Origin: a phage
Direction: 5' to 3' (one strand)
Length of the DNA stretch: 44,688 bases
Sequence record: PX880098.1
Below are positions 5,620 to 36,916 of the stretch, one piece after another. Below the pieces are notes generated by a model. It saw only the letters and a list, made by a program, of their open reading frames with translations. It was not told the origin of the DNA and did no database searches. Made by a program: the position numbers and the translations under genes. Numbering within the stretch: the first letter of the stretch is position 1; each line of letters begins with the position of its first letter.

Positions 5620-6324
5620 ATGAATCGTTTTTTACGTTATCCGTTCCAGGAAGAAGCTGGAGCAGAAGATAAATCTGGTGGCGGTGATGCGCCGAAAATG
5701 TTCACCGCTGAAGAAGTTCAGGCGCTGATTGAGAAAGAAGTCGCCGGGCTTAAGGCCAATCAGGAAGCATTGCTGGCGGAGAAGAAAGAAGCCGCCCGTA
5801 AAGCAAAAGAGGCTGAAGAAGAGCGGCAGCGCGCACACCAGGAGGCGTTAAAAGCCGCTGGTAAGATGGACGAGTTCGAAAAGACGATTCGTAGCCAGTA
5901 TGACCCGGTGTTAGCCGAGAAAGATGGTCGCATCTCCAGAATGGCAGAGCGCATCCTCGGCAGCGAACGTAAAGCGGTGCTAGGCTCTTTCGCGGGCGAC
6001 TTTATTACCCCGGAAGCAGTAGACATTCTTGCTCCGTTCGTTAAGACTGAGTTCGAAGGCGATGACGTGGTTACTAAGTTTGTCGGTGCAGATGGCAATG
6101 TAATCACGACTGACCCGGAACAGTTCCGCAAATACCTGCGTGAACACAAAGCGTTTTCGCATTTGATTAAAGCAAATGCAGCTTCCGGCGGCGGGGCTTC
6201 CGGCAGCAAAGGCGGCGGGGCCGCACCAGCGTTTAAAGACATGAGTGAAGCGGAGCGCATTGCTCTGTACGAATCGAACCCTGCCGAATTTGAACGGCAA
6301 CTTAAAGCCCTGAGGAAAAAATAA
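5620..6324 (+). CDS. scaffolding protein (putative)
   Basis: Directly upstream of the major capsid gene; highly charged alpha-helical sequence (KEAARKAKEAEEERQRAHQEALKAAG); start at ATG 5620 after AGGGGA. Confidence 0.6.
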   Translation: MNRFLRYPFQEEAGAEDKSGGGDAPKMFTAEEVQALIEKEVAGLKANQEALLAEKKEAARKAKEAEEERQRAHQEALKAAGKMDEFEKTIRSQYDPVLAEKDGRISRMAERILGSERKAVLGSFAGDFITPEAVDILAPFVKTEFEGDDVVTKFVGADGNVITTDPEQFRKYLREHKAFSHLIKANAASGGGASGSKGGGAAPAFKDMSEAERIALYESNPAEFERQLKALRKK

Positions 6325-7373
6325 TGGCAATTACTACTATCGGCGATATCGTAACTGGTAAAGAATCGGTAATTCTGTCTTATATGACCGAGGACCCGGT
6401 AGAAAAAACCGCGTTCTTCCAGTCCGGTATTCTTACCCCTACTCCGTACGCCGCTGAGATTGCTCGCGGTCCGTCCAACATCGCTAATATTCCTTTCTGG
6501 AAAGCTATCGATACGTCTATCGAGCCTAACTACTCGAACGACGTATACCAGGACATCGCAACCCCGCGTAACGTGCAGACCGGTGAGATGATGGCGCGCG
6601 TTGCGTACCTGAACGAAGGTTTCGGCCAGGCGGACCTGACTGTAGAACTGACCAGCCAGAACCCGCTGCAATCCGTAGCGTCCCGCCTGGATAACTTCTG
6701 GCAGCGCCAGGCGCAACGCCGTCTGATTGCTACCGCGCTTGGCCTGTACAACGACAACGTAGCTGCTACCGATGCCTACCACGAGCAGAACGACATGGTA
6801 ATTGACGTGTCCGCTACTCTGGGCTTCGACTCCGGCGCGTTCATCGATGCTACCCAGACTATGGGTGACGCTCTGATTGGCAACGGCGGCGAAGTGCTAG
6901 GCGCTATTGCTATGCATAGCTTCGTTTATGCGCAGGCACGTAAGCAACAGCTTATTGACTTCATCCGTGACGCCGACAACGACACCATGTTCGCCACCTA
7001 CCAGGGCTATCGTGTGATTGTTGACGACAGCATGACCGTAGTCGGTACAGGCGGCGACCGTAAGTTCATCTCCATCATCTTCGGCAACGGCGCTATCGGT
7101 TACGGGGAAGGCAACCCAACCAATCCGCTGGCCTATGAGCGCGAAGAGTCTCGCGGTAACGGTGGCGGTGTAGAAACCCTGTGGACCCGTAAGACTTGGT
7201 TGCTGCACCCGTTTGGCTACAGCTTCACCAGCGCGGTAATCACCGGCAACGGCACCGAGACTGTCGCACGCTCTGCTTCCTGGCAGGACCTGGCGAACGC
7301 CTCCAACTGGAACCGCGTTGTCGAGCGTAAGCATGTACCGATTGCCTTCCTGGTAACTGGTGTCGGTGCTTAA
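6324..7373 (+). CDS. major capsid protein
   Basis: 349-aa ORF after scaffold, strong SD GAGGA 7 nt upstream, followed by a strong terminator; position and size typical. Confidence 0.7.
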   Translation: MAITTIGDIVTGKESVILSYMTEDPVEKTAFFQSGILTPTPYAAEIARGPSNIANIPFWKAIDTSIEPNYSNDVYQDIATPRNVQTGEMMARVAYLNEGFGQADLTVELTSQNPLQSVASRLDNFWQRQAQRRLIATALGLYNDNVAATDAYHEQNDMVIDVSATLGFDSGAFIDATQTMGDALIGNGGEVLGAIAMHSFVYAQARKQQLIDFIRDADNDTMFATYQGYRVIVDDSMTVVGTGGDRKFISIIFGNGAIGYGEGNPTNPLAYEREESRGNGGGVETLWTRKTWLLHPFGYSFTSAVITGNGTETVARSASWQDLANASNWNRVVERKHVPIAFLVTGVGA

Positions 7374-23708: not shown

Positions 23709-23890
23709 TTCTTACCTTCGCTTTTCTTGAAACTGCACTTTATGTCCGGCAGCGTGTAGCACCGTGATTTTTCGTATTTACCGTTCGAGCTTACCAAAAC
23801 AAAGCTGTTGCCGTCTTTTGATATGTACTCGACAATAAAAGTATTGGATGTATGTACGCTGTATATTTCGTCTCCAACATTAAGCTTCAT
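23705..23890 (-). CDS. hypothetical protein (61 aa)
   Basis: ATGA-coupled ORF downstream of helicase gene. Confidence 0.5.
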   Translation of the reverse strand: MKLNVGDEIYSVHTSNTFIVEYISKDGNSFVLVSSNGKYEKSRCYTLPDIKCSFKKSEGKK

Positions 23891-26352
23891 TTCTTACCTC
23901 GTCTCTTCATGTAATTAAGCAATTCTTCCTGGACAGATTTCTTCTCGTCAGTGCGCGCGGCGACAACCTCATCCAGCGTGTCTTTAGCAACGATGTGGTA
24001 TAGGAACACAGGGCGCTCGTGACCCGCCTGTTTCTGGCGTACTGGGCCTATACGCTCAACAACCTGCAAATAGTGCTCAAGGTTCCAGCCTTGTGAAATG
24101 AATGCCAGATGATGCCCTCCGTCCTGTAAATTCAAACCATGGCCCGCTGACGCAGGATGCACGCATAATATTTCGATTTCCCCGCGGTTCCACGCTTCCA
24201 TCTGCTTATTACCTTTAACGCCTTTGGCAAACGCCTGCGCCTGCGGGAATCGCTTAAGGATGCGCTCCAGTTCGTGCTTGAACTGATAGGCCACTAGTAA
24301 CGGCGCACCCTGTAGCTCCTCAACAATGGACTCCAGAGCATCCAGTTTCGTGTCGTGTACTTTCTCCCAGTCTTTCGTTGCTTCGCCATCTGGCCCTGAT
24401 ACGTATACGGCACCGGATGCAATCTGCAGACACTTAGAGGTCTTCGCCGCAGCGTTAGCCGCTTCAACTTCTCCGCTCTCCAGTTCAGCAAATAACTTCT
24501 CCTCCATATCGATGTACGCCTGACGCGCTTTCTTCGGCAGGTCAATTTCAACCGGTACAATTATTGGCGCTTCACAACCAAACCACTCGGCAGCGTCAAT
24601 CGTGAGACTAATGTCCTTCATCTTCTGGTGAATTTCGTTATCCGCACCTGGGCGGGCGTGGTATTCGCGCGCCATAGCCGATTTGCCTTTCTGTACCGAG
24701 TTAAACCAGCGGTCGGTGAATGCTGTGTATGATGACCCCAGGCGCTCGCCAGCGTCGATAAACCAGTTCTGGCCCCACAAGTCCTTGAGGCCGTTTGGTG
24801 ACGGTGTACCGGTCAGATTGATGAAACGTTTAACATTACCGAACGCCACTTTGCTTAGTGCCTTTGCTCGCTTGCTTCCGCCAGAACGGCTGCGGAATGA
24901 TTTCAACTTCGTGCTCTCATCGGCAACAATAACCGTAAAAGGCCAGTCGTCTTTGCCGTAGTAGTCAATCAGCCACTCGATTACCTCATAGTTCGTGCAC
25001 ACCACGTTAGCGTCGGACTCCAGCGCCGCGATGCGGCGCTTCTCTGAACCGGTCGCATCTACGACGCGCAGACAAGGGAAACCCCACTTAGTTTGTTCTG
25101 CCGGCCATGTGCCGGACGCAACACGCAACGGCGCAAGGATTAACACACGGTCGTCATCATTAAGTTGGCCGTTGCGGAACAGCCGATTGAGAACCCACAT
25201 CGTCGAGCTTGTGTTGTGCGTTACGGTGAAGTCGCCTAATAGAAACCGGTGGTCACCGTCGATAGTGAAGCCGTAATAATCATCTACGCCGACCGGGGTT
25301 ATAGATTCTATTCCAACGTTAAGTACGTTTTTATTAATATTACGCTTCGGTAAATTCTGGTGGCGGCCACGCACGAAAGGCACCTCAGAAAAATCGCCTG
25401 ATACCGATACGCGGAAGTAATCCCCCCAAACATCAGTGTTTGCGCAACGCTTACGAGTTTTCTTCTTGTAAGCGGCGAAACCAAGAGAACGGCATAGATA
25501 GCAAAAATCATCAGCGAGTCGCTCGCTTACCGAAATCCAGTCAAAACCTGCTTTAGACAAATCACAATAACCGTCGCTATCCAGAAGCCCCGCCAGCAAT
25601 TCTAAACGTTGCTGCCGGTCGCCGCATTTGTAATTATGCGGTATATGCTTATGGTTCAAGACCCCCGCCGACCTCAGCGCGTGCGTAAGCCCGTGCTTCT
25701 TATTGCCAGTATTGCCGTAAGATATACTCCATGTAAGTCCTTCTTTTCGTATTTGCATCCCATTACGCGCTGCGTACGATTCAAGATACTCCCTTATTTC
25801 CTTTTCGTTTTCCCCAGATGTTATGGCTCCCGACGATGAGGTGCCATCACCAAGCCACAGCCCCATAAGGTACGGGGGCAATAAAGCATCGTCCTGATCT
25901 TTCCTCGGGAAATCGACAGGTACTCGCCAACCCTTAAGATACCCATTAGGTCCGGTTACATATTTCGGCAACTTAAGCCAGTCGCGGACGCTTATGTCGA
26001 AAACGGTATTATCCGGCCATGAACCCTTTGCTATCCCTGTAGTAGTTCGCAGTGATAATATATGGCTTTCGTTTACCGTATACGACTCTCCTTTTCGCGG
26101 TTTAACCTCGTACATCATCTCCCGGCCTCTACCGAGAGACAGTACATTTCTAGGCGTTGAATCTGGCCCCATAAGCACGTCACCGACGATGACGTCTTCT
26201 ACTTTCTTGGTCGTACCGTCAAACATAATAACTTCAGTCCCGCGTTTCAGGCACTTGCCGCTACCCATACTTGCCCAGATATTACAGCGCGGGTTCCGCA
26301 GCATGAACGAGGTCATGAGCTTTTGATAAGGCCTTCTAGTGAATTTACTCAT
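23887..26352 (-). CDS. SNF2-family helicase interrupted by an intein
   Basis: Walker A split as MGSGK|intein|TSS; DExx-like box VIVADESTKLK; NLTGTPSPNGLKDLW and GHGLNLQDGG helicase motifs. Confidence 0.75.
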   Translation of the reverse strand: MSKFTRRPYQKLMTSFMLRNPRCNIWASMGSGKCLKRGTEVIMFDGTTKKVEDVIVGDVLMGPDSTPRNVLSLGRGREMMYEVKPRKGESYTVNESHILSLRTTTGIAKGSWPDNTVFDISVRDWLKLPKYVTGPNGYLKGWRVPVDFPRKDQDDALLPPYLMGLWLGDGTSSSGAITSGENEKEIREYLESYAARNGMQIRKEGLTWSISYGNTGNKKHGLTHALRSAGVLNHKHIPHNYKCGDRQQRLELLAGLLDSDGYCDLSKAGFDWISVSERLADDFCYLCRSLGFAAYKKKTRKRCANTDVWGDYFRVSVSGDFSEVPFVRGRHQNLPKRNINKNVLNVGIESITPVGVDDYYGFTIDGDHRFLLGDFTVTHNTSSTMWVLNRLFRNGQLNDDDRVLILAPLRVASGTWPAEQTKWGFPCLRVVDATGSEKRRIAALESDANVVCTNYEVIEWLIDYYGKDDWPFTVIVADESTKLKSFRSRSGGSKRAKALSKVAFGNVKRFINLTGTPSPNGLKDLWGQNWFIDAGERLGSSYTAFTDRWFNSVQKGKSAMAREYHARPGADNEIHQKMKDISLTIDAAEWFGCEAPIIVPVEIDLPKKARQAYIDMEEKLFAELESGEVEAANAAAKTSKCLQIASGAVYVSGPDGEATKDWEKVHDTKLDALESIVEELQGAPLLVAYQFKHELERILKRFPQAQAFAKGVKGNKQMEAWNRGEIEILCVHPASAGHGLNLQDGGHHLAFISQGWNLEHYLQVVERIGPVRQKQAGHERPVFLYHIVAKDTLDEVVAARTDEKKSVQEELLNYMKRRGKK
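25213..26253 (-). mobile_element. intein with LAGLIDADG homing endonuclease domain (347 aa)
   Basis: Begins with Cys after GSGK, ends THN followed by Thr; two LAGLIDADG-like motifs LMGLWLGDGTS and LAGLLDSDGY; C-terminal block FLLGDFTVTHN. Confidence 0.75.
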
Positions 26353-32490: not shown

Positions 32491-32520
32491 ACTATAATAG
32501 CTAACTATTCATGTTGTCAA
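32491..32520 (-). promoter_or_regulatory. sigma70-like promoter, family A (TTGACA-N18-TATAGT)
   Basis: Minus-strand reading TTGACAacatgaatagttagctatTATAGT; divergent from the HTH gene. Confidence 0.6.
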
Positions 32521-32584: not shown

Positions 32585-32800
32585 ATGCAACCATCTGAGC
32601 TAGGTATCCGTGTAGAACAACGCCGCAAAGAACTCGGCATCTCCCAGCGCCGTCTGGCTGTCCTGGCCGGCGTTTCCCAGGGCGCGATTAACCAACTGGC
32701 TCTCGGGGTAACTCAGGACGTCCGCCCGGCAACTCTGTTTAAACTGGCGGAAGTGCTGCAAGTAGACGCCAAGTGGCTGGCGTTCGGTGAAGGGGCTTAA
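32585..32800 (+). CDS. XRE-family HTH transcriptional regulator (Cro-like)
   Basis: 71 aa; HTH ISQRRLAVLAGVSQGAINQLALG; only plus-strand gene in the replication block, divergent from a family A promoter. Confidence 0.7.
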   Translation: MQPSELGIRVEQRRKELGISQRRLAVLAGVSQGAINQLALGVTQDVRPATLFKLAEVLQVDAKWLAFGEGA

Positions 32801-32816
32801 CGCCCCTTTCTTTTTG
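32790..32816 (+). terminator. intrinsic terminator after HTH gene
   Basis: GGGGC-TTAAC-GCCCC followed by TTTCTTTTTG. Confidence 0.6.
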
Positions 32817-32817
32817 C

Positions 32818-35100
32818 CTATTCCAAATCCTCCTCTGTCACCACCAGCATTTCATTAGGTTCGTATATTGTCTTCGGCCTTAGTCTATCCCCTATTCTTT
32901 CAGGTATACGATACGTTCGCGGCACTACTTCGCCGTTAGCGTCACAGCCTAGCATTAGTTCGCCATCTTTCAGCATTTTATCAAGATGGGTGTTAGTCAC
33001 AGAAAAGTCACCGGAACGGGCAACTATCTGCTGCTGAGTAAAACCGCGACCTGTGTCATCTGACTGTTGCAGGTCTTCCAGTGCCGAAAGTATTGACTCC
33101 TTTCTCCCTTCATCCCTGCCGCGTTTAACTTCTTCCTTTACTTTTTCTTTACCTTTATCGGATAGCCCTTCTTCCCGCTCCTTCTCCTCGTCAGTTTTGA
33201 ACGGCTCGAAGCCCCACGGCATCAATACAAGCGCTTTGTGCGGTTCAGGCAGGTCGAGGTTTACGATTGTGCCGTATTCCTCTGTGCTACCCCGGAACTC
33301 AACCGCGCGGTACTCTTTCGGCGGCGGGGCTTCGCGGAACTGTACGGACTCAAGCACCATGCCAACCGTTTTCTGCTGAGGCCCGTGCTTAAATTTTGAG
33401 TGGTATACGTTTATCTGACGGTCGGTAGCGCGTTCGATTGTCAGCTCTACGTCAACGCCCGCGTACAGCGCCCCACTGCCACGGGCTTTCTTTCCACCCT
33501 TCGGCGTATGGTGGACGACGCCTACCGCGGCTTTAGTCGCGTCGCGTACTTCTTTCAGGATGGCGATGACTTTACCCATGCCGATTGCCGTTGATGAACT
33601 GTTCTCGTCGAACTTATCAATCGTCAGGGCCAGGGTCTGGTTAAGGGTGTCGAACGCGACCATGCCAATTGGCTCGTCGCCAGCAGTTTCTCGCATCAGC
33701 TTAATCAGGCTTTTCAGTTTTCCGACTTCACCCATATCGATGACGTGTACATAATCTTTACCTTCCACGCCATATTTAGCCGCGAGCGCGTCAATACGTG
33801 TGCGGGTGGCGGCACCGCCCTCCCCGTCGATATAGAAATGGTGGCAACGCTGGGTGTCCGCCCCTGCAAACCTGTATCCGGCGGCGCTGAGGTACATCAT
33901 CCCCAGCGTATAAAACGATTTGTACGTACCGGATTCCCCAACAATATCCCAGATGCAATCTGACGGCATGTACCCTTCAACGACGAAATCAGCCTTTACC
34001 GGTTCCGGCAACTCGCCCTCCTCTGAGTCTTCGTCATCTTCCAGGTCGTCAAGGCTGCATGAAACGGACTCCCGCGCACCCCAACCTATAGCCTCTGCAA
34101 CCTCACTGAACGGAAGCCCGGTCGCGTCGCACGCGTATTTCCACACCTCTTTCGGTGACATGCCTTCGGTCGCCGTAATGTCGGTGTCGTGAATCATGGT
34201 TACGTTCGGCGCTTCGTACCCCTCGCGCGGGAAGCACAGCAGGAAGTCATCTGGCCTCGGCGTCGGGTCGCTGTATTTTTCTGCGTGTTCCGGCGTAGCT
34301 GGCATCTTAAGGCCGCGCGGCGTCATGATACCGCCGTATTCAAACGCCAGCGCCTCAAACGCATCGGTAAACGCTGTGCGCAGTTCTTCCGGTATCTGGT
34401 AATCCGACGCGCTGCTAACGTCGACGGCTGGGATGCCTTCCAGTAACTCGTCCGGGTCAATCAGGTCGTTGCGACGAGACCAGATAACCTGAGAGCCGAC
34501 CGGCGGCAGGTACATCGGCTGCGACAGAGTGAACCCGCTGCGGTCAGCACCCATGCCTTTAAAGAAGTGCTCCAGCAATCCGTGACGAACGCGGATGATG
34601 TCACCGCCTTCAACCGGACGACCCAGAGGCATGACTACGCGAAAGCGCGGTGACTCATCGGTATGTGATGCCGTGGTGTAGAGACACATAGCCCGACGGC
34701 TGCGCTTAACCAGACGCACTGCTTCCTGGTACTCTTCCGGTGTTGCACTGTCGAAGTCCAGATACGCCAGCGACGATTTGCTTACAGACGCGTCACAGCG
34801 ATAAAAGAAACCTTTGCGCGCTTGCTTAAAGTCACCGGTTTCCGGGTCTTTTACGGTGCTGTGCGTTGAGTCGCACGCGGCAGTGATATAGCCAGGCGCT
34901 GTCTTCGGGTTAACCCCGTCTCGAATGGCATCGAGCGGCTGTATTAACTCTTTCAGGTCGTCCAGTGTTGCCGTGTGCGTGGTTCTGACGTTTATATCCT
35001 TTTTCTCAGCCCGCGCGTTGCGACGTGACCACGAGTAGGATAAAATTACATCGGACATGTTGTATATTCCTTCAGCAAGTAATTTGGCCTCGGCGTTCAC
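32818..35100 (-). CDS. primase-helicase (AEP-type primase domain fused to P-loop NTPase)
   Basis: AEP-like DxD motif AYLDFDSATPEEY and SH-TDE motif in N-terminal half; Walker A GESGTYKS in C-terminal half; C-terminus TEEDLE. Confidence 0.6.
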   Translation of the reverse strand: MNAEAKLLAEGIYNMSDVILSYSWSRRNARAEKKDINVRTTHTATLDDLKELIQPLDAIRDGVNPKTAPGYITAACDSTHSTVKDPETGDFKQARKGFFYRCDASVSKSSLAYLDFDSATPEEYQEAVRLVKRSRRAMCLYTTASHTDESPRFRVVMPLGRPVEGGDIIRVRHGLLEHFFKGMGADRSGFTLSQPMYLPPVGSQVIWSRRNDLIDPDELLEGIPAVDVSSASDYQIPEELRTAFTDAFEALAFEYGGIMTPRGLKMPATPEHAEKYSDPTPRPDDFLLCFPREGYEAPNVTMIHDTDITATEGMSPKEVWKYACDATGLPFSEVAEAIGWGARESVSCSLDDLEDDEDSEEGELPEPVKADFVVEGYMPSDCIWDIVGESGTYKSFYTLGMMYLSAAGYRFAGADTQRCHHFYIDGEGGAATRTRIDALAAKYGVEGKDYVHVIDMGEVGKLKSLIKLMRETAGDEPIGMVAFDTLNQTLALTIDKFDENSSSTAIGMGKVIAILKEVRDATKAAVGVVHHTPKGGKKARGSGALYAGVDVELTIERATDRQINVYHSKFKHGPQQKTVGMVLESVQFREAPPPKEYRAVEFRGSTEEYGTIVNLDLPEPHKALVLMPWGFEPFKTDEEKEREEGLSDKGKEKVKEEVKRGRDEGRKESILSALEDLQQSDDTGRGFTQQQIVARSGDFSVTNTHLDKMLKDGELMLGCDANGEVVPRTYRIPERIGDRLRPKTIYEPNEMLVVTEEDLE

Positions 35101-35117
35101 CGCGTCGGGGCTTTCTT

Positions 35118-35351
35118 TTATTCCAGGTCTTCTAAAGTAGCGGTCATTCCGCGAACTTCAGCAACAGCGCTATATTTCCCGCCCACATTTTTCACGACAC
35201 CGGATTTAACCAGTACTCGTAACGACGCTTCAATAATGGCGGAACTATAGTACTTAAAATAACTACGGCGCAAGTCGATAACACTGCACGACCCTTTTTT
35301 ACGTGTTAACGAAACTACAGCTGTGAATACCCGTGACTGAAACTCGGTCAT
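35118..35351 (-). CDS. hypothetical small protein (77 aa), possible winged-helix
   Basis: ATGA-coupled to upstream HTH ORF; C-terminus TATLEDLE. Confidence 0.5.
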   Translation of the reverse strand: MTEFQSRVFTAVVSLTRKKGSCSVIDLRRSYFKYYSSAIIEASLRVLVKSGVVKNVGGKYSAVAEVRGMTATLEDLE

Positions 35352-35518
35352 TTCACGTTCTCCTTAATCCATGCTTCCACTTTCTCCGGGTCGAACGTGC
35401 CTGGCTGCCGGCGGCCCATAATGCGAATACAACAATCCGGGAACTTCCCACTCTTTAACCAGTTATTGAGCGTGCGGCGAGTAACCCCGATACGCTCAGC
35501 TACTTCATTCTGTGTCAT
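35348..35518 (-). CDS. AlpA/Xis-like HTH DNA-binding protein (56 aa), absent from ORF track
   Basis: SD AAGGAG before ATG 35518; HTH VAERIGVTRRTLNNWLKSGKFP; stop overlaps next start (ATGA). Confidence 0.6.
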   Translation of the reverse strand: MTQNEVAERIGVTRRTLNNWLKSGKFPDCCIRIMGRRQPGTFDPEKVEAWIKENVK

Positions 35519-35657
35519 CTTTAATCTCCTTAATTATTTCACGCGCTAACGCTGTAGCTGTGCCGTATTTATTGGGGCAGTATCTGCTCTCATTATGCCC
35601 ACTAAACCACGCTTCTATCAGCAACTCTTTCAACTGTTCTTCTGTCAAAGTAACCAT
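35505..35657 (-). CDS. small protein (50 aa), absent from ORF track
   Basis: First ORF after minus-strand promoter 35690-35718; SD GAGGG; overlaps downstream gene start. Confidence 0.4.
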   Translation of the reverse strand: MVTLTEEQLKELLIEAWFSGHNESRYCPNKYGTATALAREIIKEIKDDTE

Positions 35658-35689
35658 TCTCAAACCCTCATTATCAGTTAACGAAACCG

Positions 35690-35718
35690 AGTATACATTG
35701 CGAATAATGGGAAATCAA
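35690..35718 (-). promoter_or_regulatory. sigma70-like promoter (TTGATT-N17-TATACT) of the leftward operon
   Basis: Minus-strand reading TTGATTtcccattattcgcaatgTATACT; back-to-back with the plus-strand promoter at 35734. Confidence 0.5.
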
Positions 35719-35733
35719 ACACAATCGCACCTA

Positions 35734-35762
35734 TTGACATTAAGAAAATCTTCGTTTAAGGT
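35734..35762 (+). promoter_or_regulatory. sigma70-like promoter (TTGACA-N17-TAAGGT), rightward
   Basis: Consensus -35 TTGACA with 17-nt spacer and TAAGGT; no ORF for about 380 nt downstream; terminator at 35999. Confidence 0.45.
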
Positions 35763-35998
35763 GCTTCTATATCTTAGTTACTTTGATTCCTGTTCACCTT
35801 GTAAAACCCGCCGAAAACGAGCGCCCAACGCGAAGTGTTAGGCGGCAGTTTACTGAACACGAGAATTATTGTAACTTTCCGTCCTTAGTATCTCCGGTTG
35901 CCATGGGCAAGCTCTATTCTCATCGGCAGCATATCTCTTAAGTATCTGATTTTCTTAATGTGCCGTAGATTCGCAACCGTAAAAATGTAACGATTATT

Positions 35999-36026
35999 GG
36001 GCAGGCTTAAGGCCTGCCCTTTAGTT
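35999..36026 (+). terminator. intrinsic terminator in divergent control region
   Basis: GGGCAGGC-TTAAG-GCCTGCCC followed by TTTAGTT. Confidence 0.6.
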
Positions 36027-36091
36027 ACCAAGTAATAAGAATAATGGCACAACAGTTCCTAAATAATCACAACGGCAACGCAATTAATCTC

Positions 36092-36120
36092 TTGCACGCC
36101 CCAACATAATAGGATACTAT
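36092..36120 (+). promoter_or_regulatory. sigma70-like promoter, family B (TTGCAC-N17-TACTAT)
   Basis: TTGCACgccccaacataataggaTACTATTCAC; contains ATAG-N4-CTAT; upstream of the PAPS-reductase-like gene. Confidence 0.6.
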
Positions 36121-36154
36121 TCACTTATAGTGACGAGACAGAGGAGTGATGGTC

Positions 36155-36916
36155 ATGAGCAAGCCGGTAATAGCGGTCTGGTTTTCGTGTGGTGCTGCCA
36201 GTGCGGTAGCTGCAAAAATAACTATCGAGAAATACAGTCATACTCATGATGTGCGTGTGCTTAACAACCCGGTGGCAGAGGAGGACGCTGACAACATACG
36301 TTTTCTTCATGATGTTGAAAATTGGATAGGTGTGAAAATTGAATCAGTAATTAACCCTATGTTCCCGAACGCCAGCGCTGTAGAGGTCTGGGACCATCAG
36401 CGTTATATGTCCGGCATTGCTGGAGCACCATGTACGAAGGCACTTAAGAAGCTCGCCAGAAAGCATTGGGAGCAATCAAATCGCTGTGACCATATCGTGC
36501 TTGGTTTTACTGCTGATGAGGCGCATCGCGCAGATAATTTCGTCAAAAACGAAAGGCGCAGTTTGATTCCAGTTCTGATTGAAGCCGGATACACAAAAGG
36601 AGACTGCTTTCGAATCCTTCTGGAGAACGGCATTCGACTTCCTCGTATTTATCACTTGGGTTACCCAAACGCGAACTGCATAGGATGTGTAAAAGCCACA
36701 TCTCCAACCTACTGGAATCTTGTCCGTCGCGTTCATCCTGAGGTATTTGTCCAACGTGCAGAGCAATCACGACGATTGGGTGTTCGTCTTGTTAGATATT
36801 CCGGAGAGCGCATCTATCTCGACGAGTTGCCGCCAGACGCAGTTGGCCGCCCAATAAAAAGTCTTGATTTTGAATGTGGGATTTTCTGTAAACCAGCAGA
36901 TGAGGATGAAGAATGA
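36155..36916 (+). CDS. PAPS reductase-like / PP-loop ATP pyrophosphatase superfamily protein with C-terminal Cys pairs
   Basis: N-terminal VWFSCGAAS at the position of a PP-loop SGGxDS; C-terminal CIGC and CGIFC; start ATG 36155 chosen 8 nt after GAGGAG. Confidence 0.5.
   Translation: MSKPVIAVWFSCGAASAVAAKITIEKYSHTHDVRVLNNPVAEEDADNIRFLHDVENWIGVKIESVINPMFPNASAVEVWDHQRYMSGIAGAPCTKALKKLARKHWEQSNRCDHIVLGFTADEAHRADNFVKNERRSLIPVLIEAGYTKGDCFRILLENGIRLPRIYHLGYPNANCIGCVKATSPTYWNLVRRVHPEVFVQRAEQSRRLGVRLVRYSGERIYLDELPPDAVGRPIKSLDFECGIFCKPADEDEE

Follow-up and report, generated by a model that had tools for sequence, protein, structure and literature searches.

The nearest working model for the small regulator described here comes from mycobacteriophage D29, which grows lytically: its Gp36, a small Xis-related MerR-like protein without the long dimerisation helix, binds DNA sequence-specifically at GC-rich direct repeats, with weak oligomerisation, and represses phage genes, modulating phage gene expression (PMC12266134). 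A similar fold, in which a helix-turn-helix (HTH) is followed by a beta wing and a last helix at the C-terminus within about 55 residues, occurs in Pukovnik Xis (4j2n), RdfS (8dgl), BldC (6amk/6ama) and the DNA-binding domain of RacA (5i44), none of which has a dimerisation domain; RdfS is described as oligomerising on DNA. Other systems resemble our locus in their gene arrangement. E. coli AlpA (CP4-57) and P4 Vis are small HTH proteins that head an operon with a primase-helicase gene, which is how P4-like elements and the PICIs of Gram-negative bacteria are typically laid out. The Cro-type first-gene regulators of lambda are likewise small HTH proteins, encoded by the first gene of an early operon beside a divergent promoter region, and there regulator and promoter region are inherited as a single module that comes in discrete sequence types. 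Finally, RNA-seq of phage K1B4 placed vB_Eco_K1B4_008 among only four early genes, with transcripts peaking at or before 30 min, and classed K1B4_004, the positional ortholog of an XRE/HTH_3 gene, as a middle gene.

We analyzed a window of 44,688 nt (PX880098.1, the whole stretch of DNA under study), which is a Kagunavirus (Guernseyvirinae) genome with about 92% identity to EF2-1 and ZCEC5, and whose phage is a virulent E. coli phage. An earlier note had drawn attention to two short, unlisted genes at the head of a leftward operon, and the following features are needed to evaluate them.

35690..35718, minus strand: P_L, early leftward sigma-70-type promoter (consensus scan, conservation)
35505..35657, minus strand: ORF50, 50-aa accessory protein of PHROG 20928 (PHROG match, tblastn homologs)
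35348..35518, minus strand: gene for a 56-aa HTH_17 (MerR-like winged-helix, excisionase-type) DNA-binding protein (HTH_17, PHROG 66, conservation)
35118..35351, minus strand: 77-aa winged-helix protein of PHROG 5169 with a disordered acidic ...LEDLE tail (PHROG, AlphaFold)
32818..35058, minus strand: replicative helicase-primase, 746 aa, ending ...EEDLE, the last gene of the four-gene unit (PHROG 3228, AAA_25)
32585..32800, plus strand: 71-aa HTH_3 protein of the Cro/XRE type, encoded convergently to the helicase-primase (HTH_3)

Two short genes at the start of an early leftward unit

Both the coordinates and a conserved sigma-70-type promoter bear out the claim that the two short genes lie directly 3' of a promoter at 35690-35718. 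In a consensus scan P_L consists of TTGATT (35718..35713), a 17-nt spacer and TATACT (35695..35690), from which transcription would start near 35683. The promoter is invariant among seven Kagunaviruses, and each of the 43 loci examined has a match to TTGnnn-17-TATACT ahead of its HTH gene, 29-43 nt before the ATG in 40 of them and 171-174 nt before it in the three that carry the ORF50 cassette; no second copy of the promoter sequence was found in the window. The two genes do stand at the start of this promoter's unit, but the unit comprises four genes and not the whole leftward cluster; a new strong leftward promoter lies at 32520..32491.

ORF50 runs from an ATG at 35657 to a TGA at 35507..35505 on the minus strand, with the ribosome-binding site (RBS) GAGGG (35669..35665) 7 nt before its ATG; the TTG at 35663, which the ORF tool had taken as the start, is unlikely because only 1 nt separates it from this site. 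The minus-strand 56-aa frame begins with an ATG at 35518, within a 14-nt overlap with ORF50, and ends with a stop codon at 35350..35348. It has the strong AAGGAG that the earlier note had reported, seen at 35531..35526 with a spacing of 7 nt, and its coupling to the next gene was likewise confirmed: the 77-aa gene overlaps it in an ATGA start/stop, ends in ...LEDLE and has its own AAGGAG 8 nt upstream. The 77-aa protein matches PHROG 5169 (E = 4e-39), and its AlphaFold model (pLDDT 88.1) has the N-terminal domain of MotA, the DNA-binding domain of LexA and RPA32C as Foldseek neighbours (TM 0.6-0.7). The helicase-primase, with its ATG at 35058, matches PHROG 3228 (E = 1.4e-299) and Pfam AAA_25, and is annotated in relatives as a 2241-nt gene.

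Open frames arise frequently by chance (46 ORFs of at least 25 aa overlap the surrounding 3-kb stretch), and the gene status of the 56-aa and 50-codon ORFs therefore rests on comparative evidence. On that evidence both are real genes of this Kagunavirus window. The abundance of short ORFs in the region, and the fact that the annotators of EF2-1 did not call ORF50, could suggest that one or both are untranslated chance frames, yet we consider this extremely improbable. Between our phage and four other Kagunaviruses the 56-aa gene shows 9-14 synonymous and no non-synonymous differences (dN = 0, dS 0.3-0.56), and its dN/dS against more distant relatives is 0.05-0.11. ORF50 has a dN/dS of about 0.3 against EF2-1 and ZCEC5 (the value against L017 is invalid because of a one-codon indel), its protein is conserved at constant length across unrelated phage families, and both ORFs have strong RBSs.

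The 56-aa gene is a core early gene of the Guernseyvirinae subfamily. Its homologs were found by tblastn in 443 phage records, with at least 80% identity in all except 21, and the K1ind1 ortholog, annotated as "excisionase and transcriptional regulator", is 100% identical. Against Jerseyvirus Ent1 the HTH protein is better conserved (87.5% identity) than the 77-aa protein (69%) or the helicase-primase ortholog (64%), and word-indexed searches with all three small proteins returned close relatives only. Both short genes are missing from the ORF track for no other reason than its 60-aa cut-off; they are already annotated in GenBank records of relatives, so that "unlisted" holds for the track and not for the databases, and the finding is an ordinary one.

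The ORF50 cassette

Comparison with relatives places ORF50 in a precise insertion between the leader RBS and the HTH start codon.

35519..35657, minus strand: ORF50 cassette, 139 nt (absence and junctions in relatives)

The cassette is missing from K1ind1, WAO78-1, BUCT789 and Bas73, in which the HTH ATG occupies the position of ORF50's ATG, after an identical GAGGG site. Most other relatives also lack it, only 3 of the 43 loci examined carry it, and the junction of the K1ind1 type shows that a phage is viable when the cassette is missing. Its 3' end brings a new AAGGAG for the HTH gene. These junctions are consistent with a model in which ORF50 is a separate accessory gene, acquired as a self-contained 139-nt cassette that would have usurped the former RBS of the HTH gene and supplied a new AAGGAG within ORF50's last codons, so that the HTH gene would still be translated. 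The HTH gene is the second cistron in this phage, after ORF50, whereas in most relatives it is the first, followed by a small variable gene and the helicase-primase.

The homologs of ORF50 are mostly distant: tblastn recovered homologs in 78 phage records, 75 of them under 60% identity, and they are carried by Vectrevirus K1E, Klebsiella T7-like phages, Kayfunavirus and Xuquatrovirus, with 38-58% protein identity in unrelated T7-like and other phages. Residues 1-50 align with positions 1-50 of the 51 in the PHROG 20928 profile (E = 1.5e-20). The family alignment has 11 invariant columns, which include A16, W17, G20, H21, S24, Y26, N29, A34 and R39, and shares the motif AW[FW]xGHxxSxYxPN. Among 1.84 billion proteins the matches fell into 14 clusters at 50% identity, one of them spurious; P0057 (2155 aa) was rejected as a homolog, being a low-complexity repeat artefact.

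The closest parallel is gene 1.5 of K1E, which likewise contains an AAGGAG and runs 14 nt into the gene that follows it. Like the Klebsiella T7-like genes it encodes a protein of about 50 aa with 44-54% identity to ORF50 in the alignment and the shared motif. The genomic contexts differ: in K1E the gene lies in the early region beside an ocr-like gene, in Przondovirus it follows the DNA polymerase gene, and here it precedes the HTH gene. A 49-aa CDS in EcoPhCCP1 had hinted at an insertion hot spot before the HTH gene, and we rejected this idea because that CDS is unsupported and overlaps the promoter.

Predicted fold of the 56-aa protein and its promoter region

The classic HTH claimed for the 56-aa protein was upheld by Pfam HTH_17 (PF12728; 31.6 bits against a gathering cut-off of 27, residues 1-54 on profile positions 2-50 of 51), and the predicted fold agrees. 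The same Pfam model is also present in the precomputed annotation of close homologs, and PHROG 66, "excisionase and transcriptional regulator", matches with E = 5e-10. An AlphaFold model built from the single sequence (pLDDT 75.8) has helices at residues 3-10, 14-23 and 44-54 and a wing, with a bridge between residues 30 and 41. Its Foldseek neighbours in the PDB are RacA, Pukovnik Xis, BldC and RdfS, with TM 0.52-0.74 and a probability of up to 0.97, every E-value being 0.03 or worse; a PDB search by sequence gave E = 0.45 at best. The protein differs from these four in sequence (24-31% identity) and in the absence of a recombinase partner among the genes scanned. These results place the protein in the MerR-like winged-helix (HTH_17, excisionase-type) class, and as a small DNA binder with sequence specificity it enters the main explanation given below, to which as a whole we attach a probability of about 0.5.

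Upstream of P_L, three non-coding elements attracted our attention.

35719..35738, minus strand: GTCAATAGGTGCGATTGTGT, a conserved stretch of 20 non-coding nt spanning about -36 to -55 (identity across classes)
35737..35750, minus strand: arm 1, GATTTTCTTAATGT, of an inverted repeat with perfectly matching 14-nt arms, lying upstream of the -35 element at a distance of 19 nt
35948..35961, plus strand: arm 2 of this inverted repeat, at the end of the sequence common to class A and class B phages

The HTH protein occurs in two variants, A (RRTL...IRI) and B (RQTI...KV...RN), which are told apart by residues in the wing and where the predicted recognition helix begins, and these co-vary with two classes of P_L region in all 43 loci, a correlation that is confounded by physical linkage, as gene and promoter are 30-200 bp apart. 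The gene downstream and the blocks upstream are mosaic across loci, and the putative rightward-promoter region follows the genus; amid such neighbours, the co-variation indicates that the HTH gene and about 270 bp of upstream DNA form one exchangeable module. Such perfect agreement between HTH class and promoter class would also be expected if the protein regulated through the promoter region of its own gene. The stretch GTCAATAGGTGCGATTGTGT, which adjoins the -35 element upstream, is 95-100% identical in class A1 and 75-85% identical in the Jerseyvirus class A2, but only 55-60% identical in class B loci, which bear the other HTH variant; like the promoter core, it co-varies with HTH class in 43 of 43 loci, with the confounding by linkage just mentioned. 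It is a candidate binding site for the HTH protein, a proposal drawn from this pattern of conservation.

The earlier note had expected the regulator to bind promoter palindromes, and this expectation was not supported: none was found at 35690-35718, and across 35640-36160 perfect inverted repeats were no more frequent than in shuffled sequence (for minimum arm lengths of 5, 6 and 7 bp the counts were 9, 3 and 2, against shuffle means of 7.1, 1.9 and 0.5). Proteins with this type of fold usually recognise direct repeats. The sole strong inverted repeat in that interval is a GC-rich hairpin at 35999-36019, which holds all the long ones. Repeated 8- to 11-mers in 35660-36150 were likewise not above shuffles. 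The significance of the 14-nt inverted repeat is uncertain. The homology of XY2 (class B1) to the window, read towards the HTH gene, ends at approximately arm 2, and GATTTTCTTAATGT has no further perfect copy in the window; with up to three mismatches it occurs 8 times against a shuffle mean of 4.15, a number reached by 6 of 100 shuffles and thus not clearly above chance. In relatives the two arms pair at only 11-13 of 14 positions, and we rejected an RNA stem given the 2-3 mismatches there and the absence of compensating changes. Rfam, searched with 35000-36400, had no family matching at E up to 1. A putative terminator was noted near 35812-35850, and an antisense RNA is predicted at 35053-35120.

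Candidate roles of the 56-aa protein

The reading we prefer, at a probability of about 0.5, is that the 56-aa protein is made very early from P_L and probably regulates phage transcription near its own promoter. Host RNA polymerase would transcribe the gene very early from 35718..35690, and the protein would most likely act by binding sites without palindromic symmetry in the non-coding DNA, roughly 270 bp long, beside this promoter. The outcome may be autoregulation, or a shut-down or modulation of early transcription as for D29 Gp36; both the DNA target and the direction of regulation are our inferences. The comparison with Gp36 has a limit in that Gp36 targets GC-rich direct repeats, none of which is evident near P_L of the window. 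It also counts against the preferred reading that the repeat and palindrome searches brought no binding site to light, and that Dhillonviruses have no HTH gene of this kind alongside their related helicase-primase. The arrangement also recalls lambda Cro, all the more as in Serratia phage Smarc3 a distantly related helicase-primase operon begins with a small XRE-type HTH gene in the same position. Unlike Cro, our protein has a MerR-like winged helix instead of a Cro/XRE domain, and palindromic operators were not found here.

Early transcription is supported in a related phage, via an ortholog identified by position. The gene vB_Eco_K1B4_008 is 183 nt long and overlaps the next gene by 4 nt, and gene lengths and order in K1B4 match those of XY2, whose HTH protein is 85.7% identical to that of the window. 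Gene position, order and length, rather than the K1B4 sequence itself, thus point to K1B4_008 as the HTH ortholog.

Two other roles could account for part of these observations. The HTH protein may instead mark or bend a replication origin in the adjoining non-coding block, perhaps with the 77-aa protein, and help to load the helicase-primase. This is a minority possibility that draws on the gene's place at the head of a short unit ending in helicase-primase across the subfamily, on the unusually strong conservation between genera of the 370-bp non-coding block beside it, on the oligomerisation on DNA described for its structural neighbours Xis and RdfS, and on the acidic ...EDLE C-terminus common to the 77-aa protein and the helicase-primase, since in T7 both gp4 and gp2.5 bind the polymerase through acidic tails of this sort. 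Against it, class B phages keep the HTH gene while exchanging the 77-aa partner for unrelated genes of 96, 70 or 77 aa, the conserved block in the centre, made up of the hairpin and blk1, is mosaic and absent from class B2 phages, Dhillonviruses encode a related helicase-primase but lack the HTH gene, and the repeat search of 35660-36150 found no iterons. Somewhat less likely still is a division of labour in which the Cro/XRE-type HTH_3 protein (32585-32800) controls the divergent early promoters and the 56-aa protein targets host DNA or a host factor. The HTH_3 protein matches Pfam HTH_3 (E = 1.2e-12) and PHROG transcriptional-repressor families, is 100% identical to EF2-1 gp3, annotated "repressor", and its gene comes with a terminator-like hairpin on the plus strand, at 32789-32809. 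XRE/Cro dimers are classic palindrome binders, and three overlapping 5-bp palindromes lie at 36108-36133 beside the putative rightward promoter; for any palindromic operator the HTH_3 protein is at least as good a candidate as the 56-aa protein. Yet the palindrome count is no higher than chance, K1B4_004 is a middle gene while the HTH gene is early, and nothing points to a host target: HTH class follows the phage promoter class and not the host genus, class A being found in E. coli and Salmonella phages alike.

The inherited label suggests a further role, that of an excisionase or recombination directionality factor, or of an AlpA-type activator of an integrative element, and here we see scarcely any likelihood. 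The PHROG 66 match, the label borne by relatives and the presence of Pukovnik Xis and the RdfS excisionase among the Foldseek neighbours all speak for it, and to this extent the description "AlpA/Xis-like" is correct at the level of superfamily and fold. It goes no further: NCBIfam TIGR01764 "excise" scores 23.4 bits against a curated cut-off of 28.8 and aligns only residues 1-27, the NCBIfam results contain no AlpA model, and Phage_AlpA (PF05930) is not among the best 25 of the 26 Pfam families matched at E<=1 (these 25 reach E 0.17). No integrase or recombinase was found among the subset of window ORFs scanned or among the 72 annotated genes of EF2-1, the closest annotated relative, and an excisionase would therefore lack its partner. 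In this the phage differs from D29, which derived from temperate relatives, and from the AlpA (CP4-57) and P4 Vis systems, as there is also no island context around the 56-aa gene. We dropped an analogy with antitermination by P. aeruginosa AlpA because that protein, of at least 142 residues and with a fold like 21Q, is not comparable. The 56-aa protein is thus almost certainly not an excisionase.

If early regulation by the 56-aa protein is the preferred reading, a bolder extension of it seems doubtful to us: the HTH gene and its roughly 270 bp would be a specificity module of at least two types (A and B) that sets the early programme of virulent Guernseyvirinae, a Cro-like switch built on an excisionase fold without lysogeny, and ORF50 would serve host takeover or counter host defences, as a new gene spreading between unrelated phage families in a cassette with an RBS for the following gene.

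For the Kagunavirus group, these results mean that two genes, one for a core early regulator and one accessory, escape an ORF list cut off at 60 aa. The practical value of the finding is small. The inherited label "excisionase" nevertheless misleads where, as in this phage, no integrase was found, and, if wrong, it can get a strictly lytic phage flagged as temperate; phage therapy and biocontrol draw widely on Kagunavirus and Jerseyvirus isolates as candidates. Should the HTH protein indeed control early transcription, it would offer, together with its promoter region, a natural handle for engineering or timing expression.

Two small genes at the head of the leftward operon

Both small ORFs, the AAGGAG, the ATGA coupling, the promoter and the EDLE-tailed 77-aa ORF lie where the earlier note had placed them, in a unit of four genes: ORF50 (the 50-codon ORF), the gene for the 56-aa HTH protein, the 77-aa gene and the helicase-primase gene. 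The features below were read from the sequence, with a consensus scan for the first promoter.

Features of the leftward operon and its surroundings
35718..35690, minus: promoter P_L (TTGATT 35718..35713, 17-nt spacer, TATACT 35695..35690)
35669..35665, minus: GAGGG ribosome-binding site
35657..35505, minus: ORF50, ATG 35657 to TGA 35507..35505
35531..35526, minus: AAGGAG
35518..35348, minus: 56-codon HTH ORF, ATG 35518 to TGA 35350..35348; 14-nt overlap with ORF50
35351..35118, minus: 77-codon ORF; ATGA start/stop overlap with the 56-codon ORF, C-terminus LEDLE
35058..32818, minus: helicase-primase gene, from ATG 35058; 59-nt gap after the 77-codon ORF
32585..32800, plus: convergent HTH_3 gene (71-aa Cro/XRE-type protein), past the helicase-primase stop codon
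32789-32809, plus: terminator-like hairpin of the HTH_3 gene, between it and the convergent helicase-primase gene
32520..32491, minus: strong near-consensus leftward promoter TTGACA-18-TATAGT (11/12 matches), downstream of the HTH_3 gene

Chance ORFs of 50 to 56 codons are frequent in this region, so we judged both ORFs on comparative evidence. The 56-aa protein scores 31.6 bits against Pfam HTH_17 (cut-off 27), also matches PHROG 66, and was found by tblastn in 443 phage records, essentially all Guernseyvirinae, with at least 80% identity in all but 21. Relative to EF2-1, ZCEC5, K1ind1 and Bas73, its gene carries 9-14 synonymous and 0 non-synonymous differences (dS 0.31-0.56), and dN/dS is 0.05-0.11 against XY2, Ent1 and EcoPhCCP1. 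ORF50 gave a full-length match to PHROG 20928 (E = 1.5e-20); the ZCEC5 record lists it as hypothetical, and the EF2-1 annotation missed it. Homologs with 38-58% protein identity occur in Vectrevirus K1E, Klebsiella T7-like phages, Kayfunavirus and Xuquatrovirus, and the family motif is AW[FW]xGHxxSxYxPN, with eleven invariant alignment columns. These profile matches, the wide conservation, the synonymous-biased changes in the HTH gene and the ORF50 motif bear out the earlier claim that both are genes; judged by these comparisons both are genuine, and it is very hard to credit that they are not.

A time-course RNA-seq study of Kagunavirus vB_Eco_K1B4 classed just four genes as early, the sole annotated one being vB_Eco_K1B4_008, "helix-turn-helix" (PMC12645636). 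That gene (6308..6490, minus strand, 183 nt) shares 4 nt with 007 (291 nt) (PMC12645636, supplementary gene table); 006 (129 nt) and 005 (AAA helicase-primase) come after 007, and the helicase-primase was classed as middle (PMC12645636). Since phage XY2 has the same gene order and lengths as K1B4 008-005, and its HTH protein is 85.7% identical to the window's, we conclude that the HTH ortholog is transcribed early in K1B4, an orthology resting on gene position and length.

The leftward replication genes would form at least two transcription units, split by promoter 32520..32491 and hairpin 32789-32809; farther leftward lie genes for a PD-(D/E)XK nuclease, an ssDNA-binding protein, DNA polymerase A and an SNF2 helicase. 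This SNF2-type helicase (821 aa, 23887-26352, minus) is split by an intein, with matches to Hom_end_hint (E = 8.8e-23, aa 34-108), LAGLIDADG_3 (aa 248-305) and SNF2-rel_dom (aa 387-532); its EF2-1 counterpart, at the same place, has 474 aa. An acidic EDLE C-terminus is common to the 77-aa winged-helix protein (...ATLEDLE, 35118-35141) and the helicase-primase (...TEEDLE, 32818-32838), both on the minus strand, and the Jerseyvirus ortholog of the former retains it (...TPEDLE). This common end suggests that the two may dock to one partner; the acidic tails of T7 gp4 and gp2.5 offer a parallel. Opposite the helicase-primase start there is a possible cis-antisense RNA (35018-35122, plus), with promoter-like TTGCGA-17-TAAAAT at 35018-35046, a hairpin at 35086-35112 and then TTCTTTTATT. 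Because 4 of its 11 pairs are G-T, the hairpin folds well in plus-strand RNA only. The predicted RNA (about 70 nt, dG -22.1 kcal/mol, z = -3.5) would span the stop codon of the 77-aa gene as well as the ATG and ribosome-binding site of the helicase-primase gene. The candidate is kept in Kagunaviruses, and Jerseyvirus Ent1 has promoter-like hexamers (TTGCTA-17-TAGATT) and a hairpin with other stem bases at the site.

ORF50 as a cassette

We placed the boundaries of the ORF50 insertion with BLAST and MAFFT alignments to relatives. Because 35657..35519 (139 nt) is missing from K1ind1, WAO78-1, BUCT789 and Bas73, where the HTH start codon occupies the exact site of the window's ORF50 ATG behind an identical GAGGGTTTGAGA leader, ORF50 is a precise cassette insertion. 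It has taken over the older HTH ribosome-binding site, and its last codons (IKEIKDD, ATTAAGGAGATTAAAGATGAC) provide a new AAGGAG and ATG for the HTH gene. K1E gene 1.5 has a similar 3' end: an AAGGAG lies inside the gene, which overlaps the unrelated gene downstream of it by 14 nt. The family's 3' end looks shaped for translational coupling to any following gene.

The cassette is present in 3 of 43 loci (the window plus 42 from IMG/VR) and, in GenBank, in two phages beyond the window. Among 1.84 billion proteins the family forms 14 clusters at 50% identity, one being a spurious repeat protein. In K1E its gene is found close to an ocr-like gene, in the early region, and in Przondovirus it comes directly after the DNA polymerase gene; these contexts give no specific hint of function. 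ORF50 is an accessory gene, and a host-takeover or anti-defence role is our guess from these contexts. The rightward early operon's first gene (36146-36916, plus) encodes a 256-aa PAPS-reductase-like protein (PHROG 424, E = 7e-41) without a Pfam match. Small hypothetical genes hold its position in EF2-1 and the other relatives examined, so both divergent operons of the window phage begin with an accessory gene.

Fold, family and the excisionase label

An AlphaFold model built from the single sequence (pLDDT 75.8) places helices at residues 3-10 and 14-23, a two-strand wing at about 30-41 and a C-terminal helix at 44-54; the first two helices, like the HTH_17 match, agree with the helix-turn-helix seen earlier. 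Its best PDB neighbors are the RacA DNA-binding domain, mycobacteriophage Pukovnik Xis, BldC, the RdfS excisionase and MerR N-terminal domains (TM 0.52-0.74, probability up to 0.97), with every E-value 0.03 or worse, no surprise in a protein this short.

Relatives label the gene "helix-turn-helix domain protein" or "excisionase and transcriptional regulator," and the earlier note had called it AlpA/Xis-like. That family assignment did not hold: TIGR01764 "excise" scores 23.4 bits, under its cut-off of 28.8, and AlpA models appear neither among the Pfam matches listed (best 25 of 26) nor in the NCBIfam results. An excisionase would also lack its partner. A 1.3-kb query around both ORFs matched 359 phage records, the best all Kagunavirus (Guernseyvirinae), with Escherichia phages EF2-1 (92.8%) and ZCEC5 (91.8%) at the top. 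We found no integrase among EF2-1's 72 annotated genes or in Pfam and PHROG scans of the window-specific and leftward ORFs, and for this reason the window has the look of a virulent siphovirus genome. Despite the excisionases among its structural neighbors, an excisionase role is thus extremely improbable. We also dropped AlpA-type antitermination: the P. aeruginosa AlpA that acts so has at least 142 residues and a 21Q-like fold, whereas the window protein has 56.

A putative exchangeable module and the proposed role of the HTH protein

The promoter reported ahead of the small genes is well conserved: TTGnnn-17-TATACT precedes the HTH ATG in 43/43 loci, at 29-43 nt, or 171-174 nt with ORF50 inserted. 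The HTH proteins fall into class A (...TRRTLNNWL...C[IV]RIMGRR...; A1 in Kagunavirus, A2 in Jerseyvirus) and class B (...TRQTINNW...[IV]KVMGRR...DRNK; B1 and B2), whose differences fall in the wing and where the predicted recognition helix begins. Across the 43 loci each HTH class goes without exception with one of two promoter-region classes, TTGATTTCCCATTAT... and TTGCTTTTACA.... The 20 nt immediately preceding the -35 element (35738..35719) and a block (blk2) are kept between genera within class A, not in class B. Other neighbors do not track the HTH class: the downstream gene is mosaic, coding for the winged-helix EDLE protein of 77 aa in class A phages but for unrelated proteins (96, 70 or 77 aa) in B1 and B2, the central hairpin and an upstream block (blk1) are mosaic across HTH classes, and the putative rightward-promoter region (TTGCAC-17-TACTAT, plus strand 36092-36120, read by eye under the scan tool's threshold) follows genus. 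Between genera, identity is 87.5% for the HTH protein, 69% for the 77-aa protein and 64% for the helicase-primase. Given that promoter-region class tracks HTH class while other neighbors do not, the HTH gene and about 270 bp of upstream DNA behave as one exchangeable module, although linkage alone could give the same pattern, since the co-varying elements are only 30-200 bp apart. A regulator with its own cis sites would look like this.

About 90 nt upstream of P_L is a hairpin with a T-run (CCGCC...GGCGGGTTTTAC, 35812-35850, minus). Its stems vary (ZCEC5 TGTTTAACCC/GGGTTAAACA, Bas73 CGCTTAA/TTAAGCG, Ent1 another) and its flanks are kept; it looks like a genuine terminator of a putative leftward transcript from the conserved non-coding block. 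This block (35850-36090), between the divergent early operons, is near-identical in Kagunavirus and Jerseyvirus and absent or replaced in class B2 phages, e.g. EcoPhCCP1. It contains hairpin GGGCAGGCTTAAGGCCTGCCC (35999-36019), scored as a plus-strand terminator, and gave no Rfam match; in some GenBank records (Bas73, BUCT789) ORFs of 85 to 106 aa are annotated across it. The block may serve as an origin, encode a small RNA or hold a cluster of operators.

We consider the 56-aa protein an early sequence-specific DNA-binding regulator of its own module's non-coding DNA, with a probability of roughly 0.5. The promoter palindromes proposed as its target were not found: 35690-35718 holds no perfect inverted repeat, and those in 35640-36160 are no commoner than in shuffles, the sole strong one being the GC-rich hairpin 35999-36019. 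A 14-nt perfect inverted repeat, GATTTTCTTAATGT (arms 35750..35737 and 35948..35961), is a statistical outlier; its arms agree at just 11-13/14 positions in relatives, with no compensating changes, and the motif has no clear recurrence elsewhere in the window. Small MerR-like winged-helix proteins without a dimerization helix are reported to bind direct repeats or oligomerize on DNA, as does D29 Gp36, which represses phage genes in a lytic phage (PMC12266134); the same is reported for RdfS. On the D29 Gp36 model, the 56-aa protein would regulate its own expression or shut off early transcription.

For any palindromic operators, the HTH_3 protein is an equally good or better candidate; that it is the real promoter regulator, the 56-aa protein acting on something else, is unlikely. 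A role of the 56-aa protein in origin marking or helicase loading is slightly less so.

Annotated GenBank proteins, K1ind1 YP_009597321.1 among them, match the HTH protein at 100% identity, and ORF50 is both annotated in ZCEC5 and a member of an established PHROG; both genes are therefore already known as annotation. Our additions are modest: the exact boundaries of the ORF50 cassette, the A/B co-variation of HTH and promoter-region class, and the case that these phages have inherited a wrong "excisionase" label.
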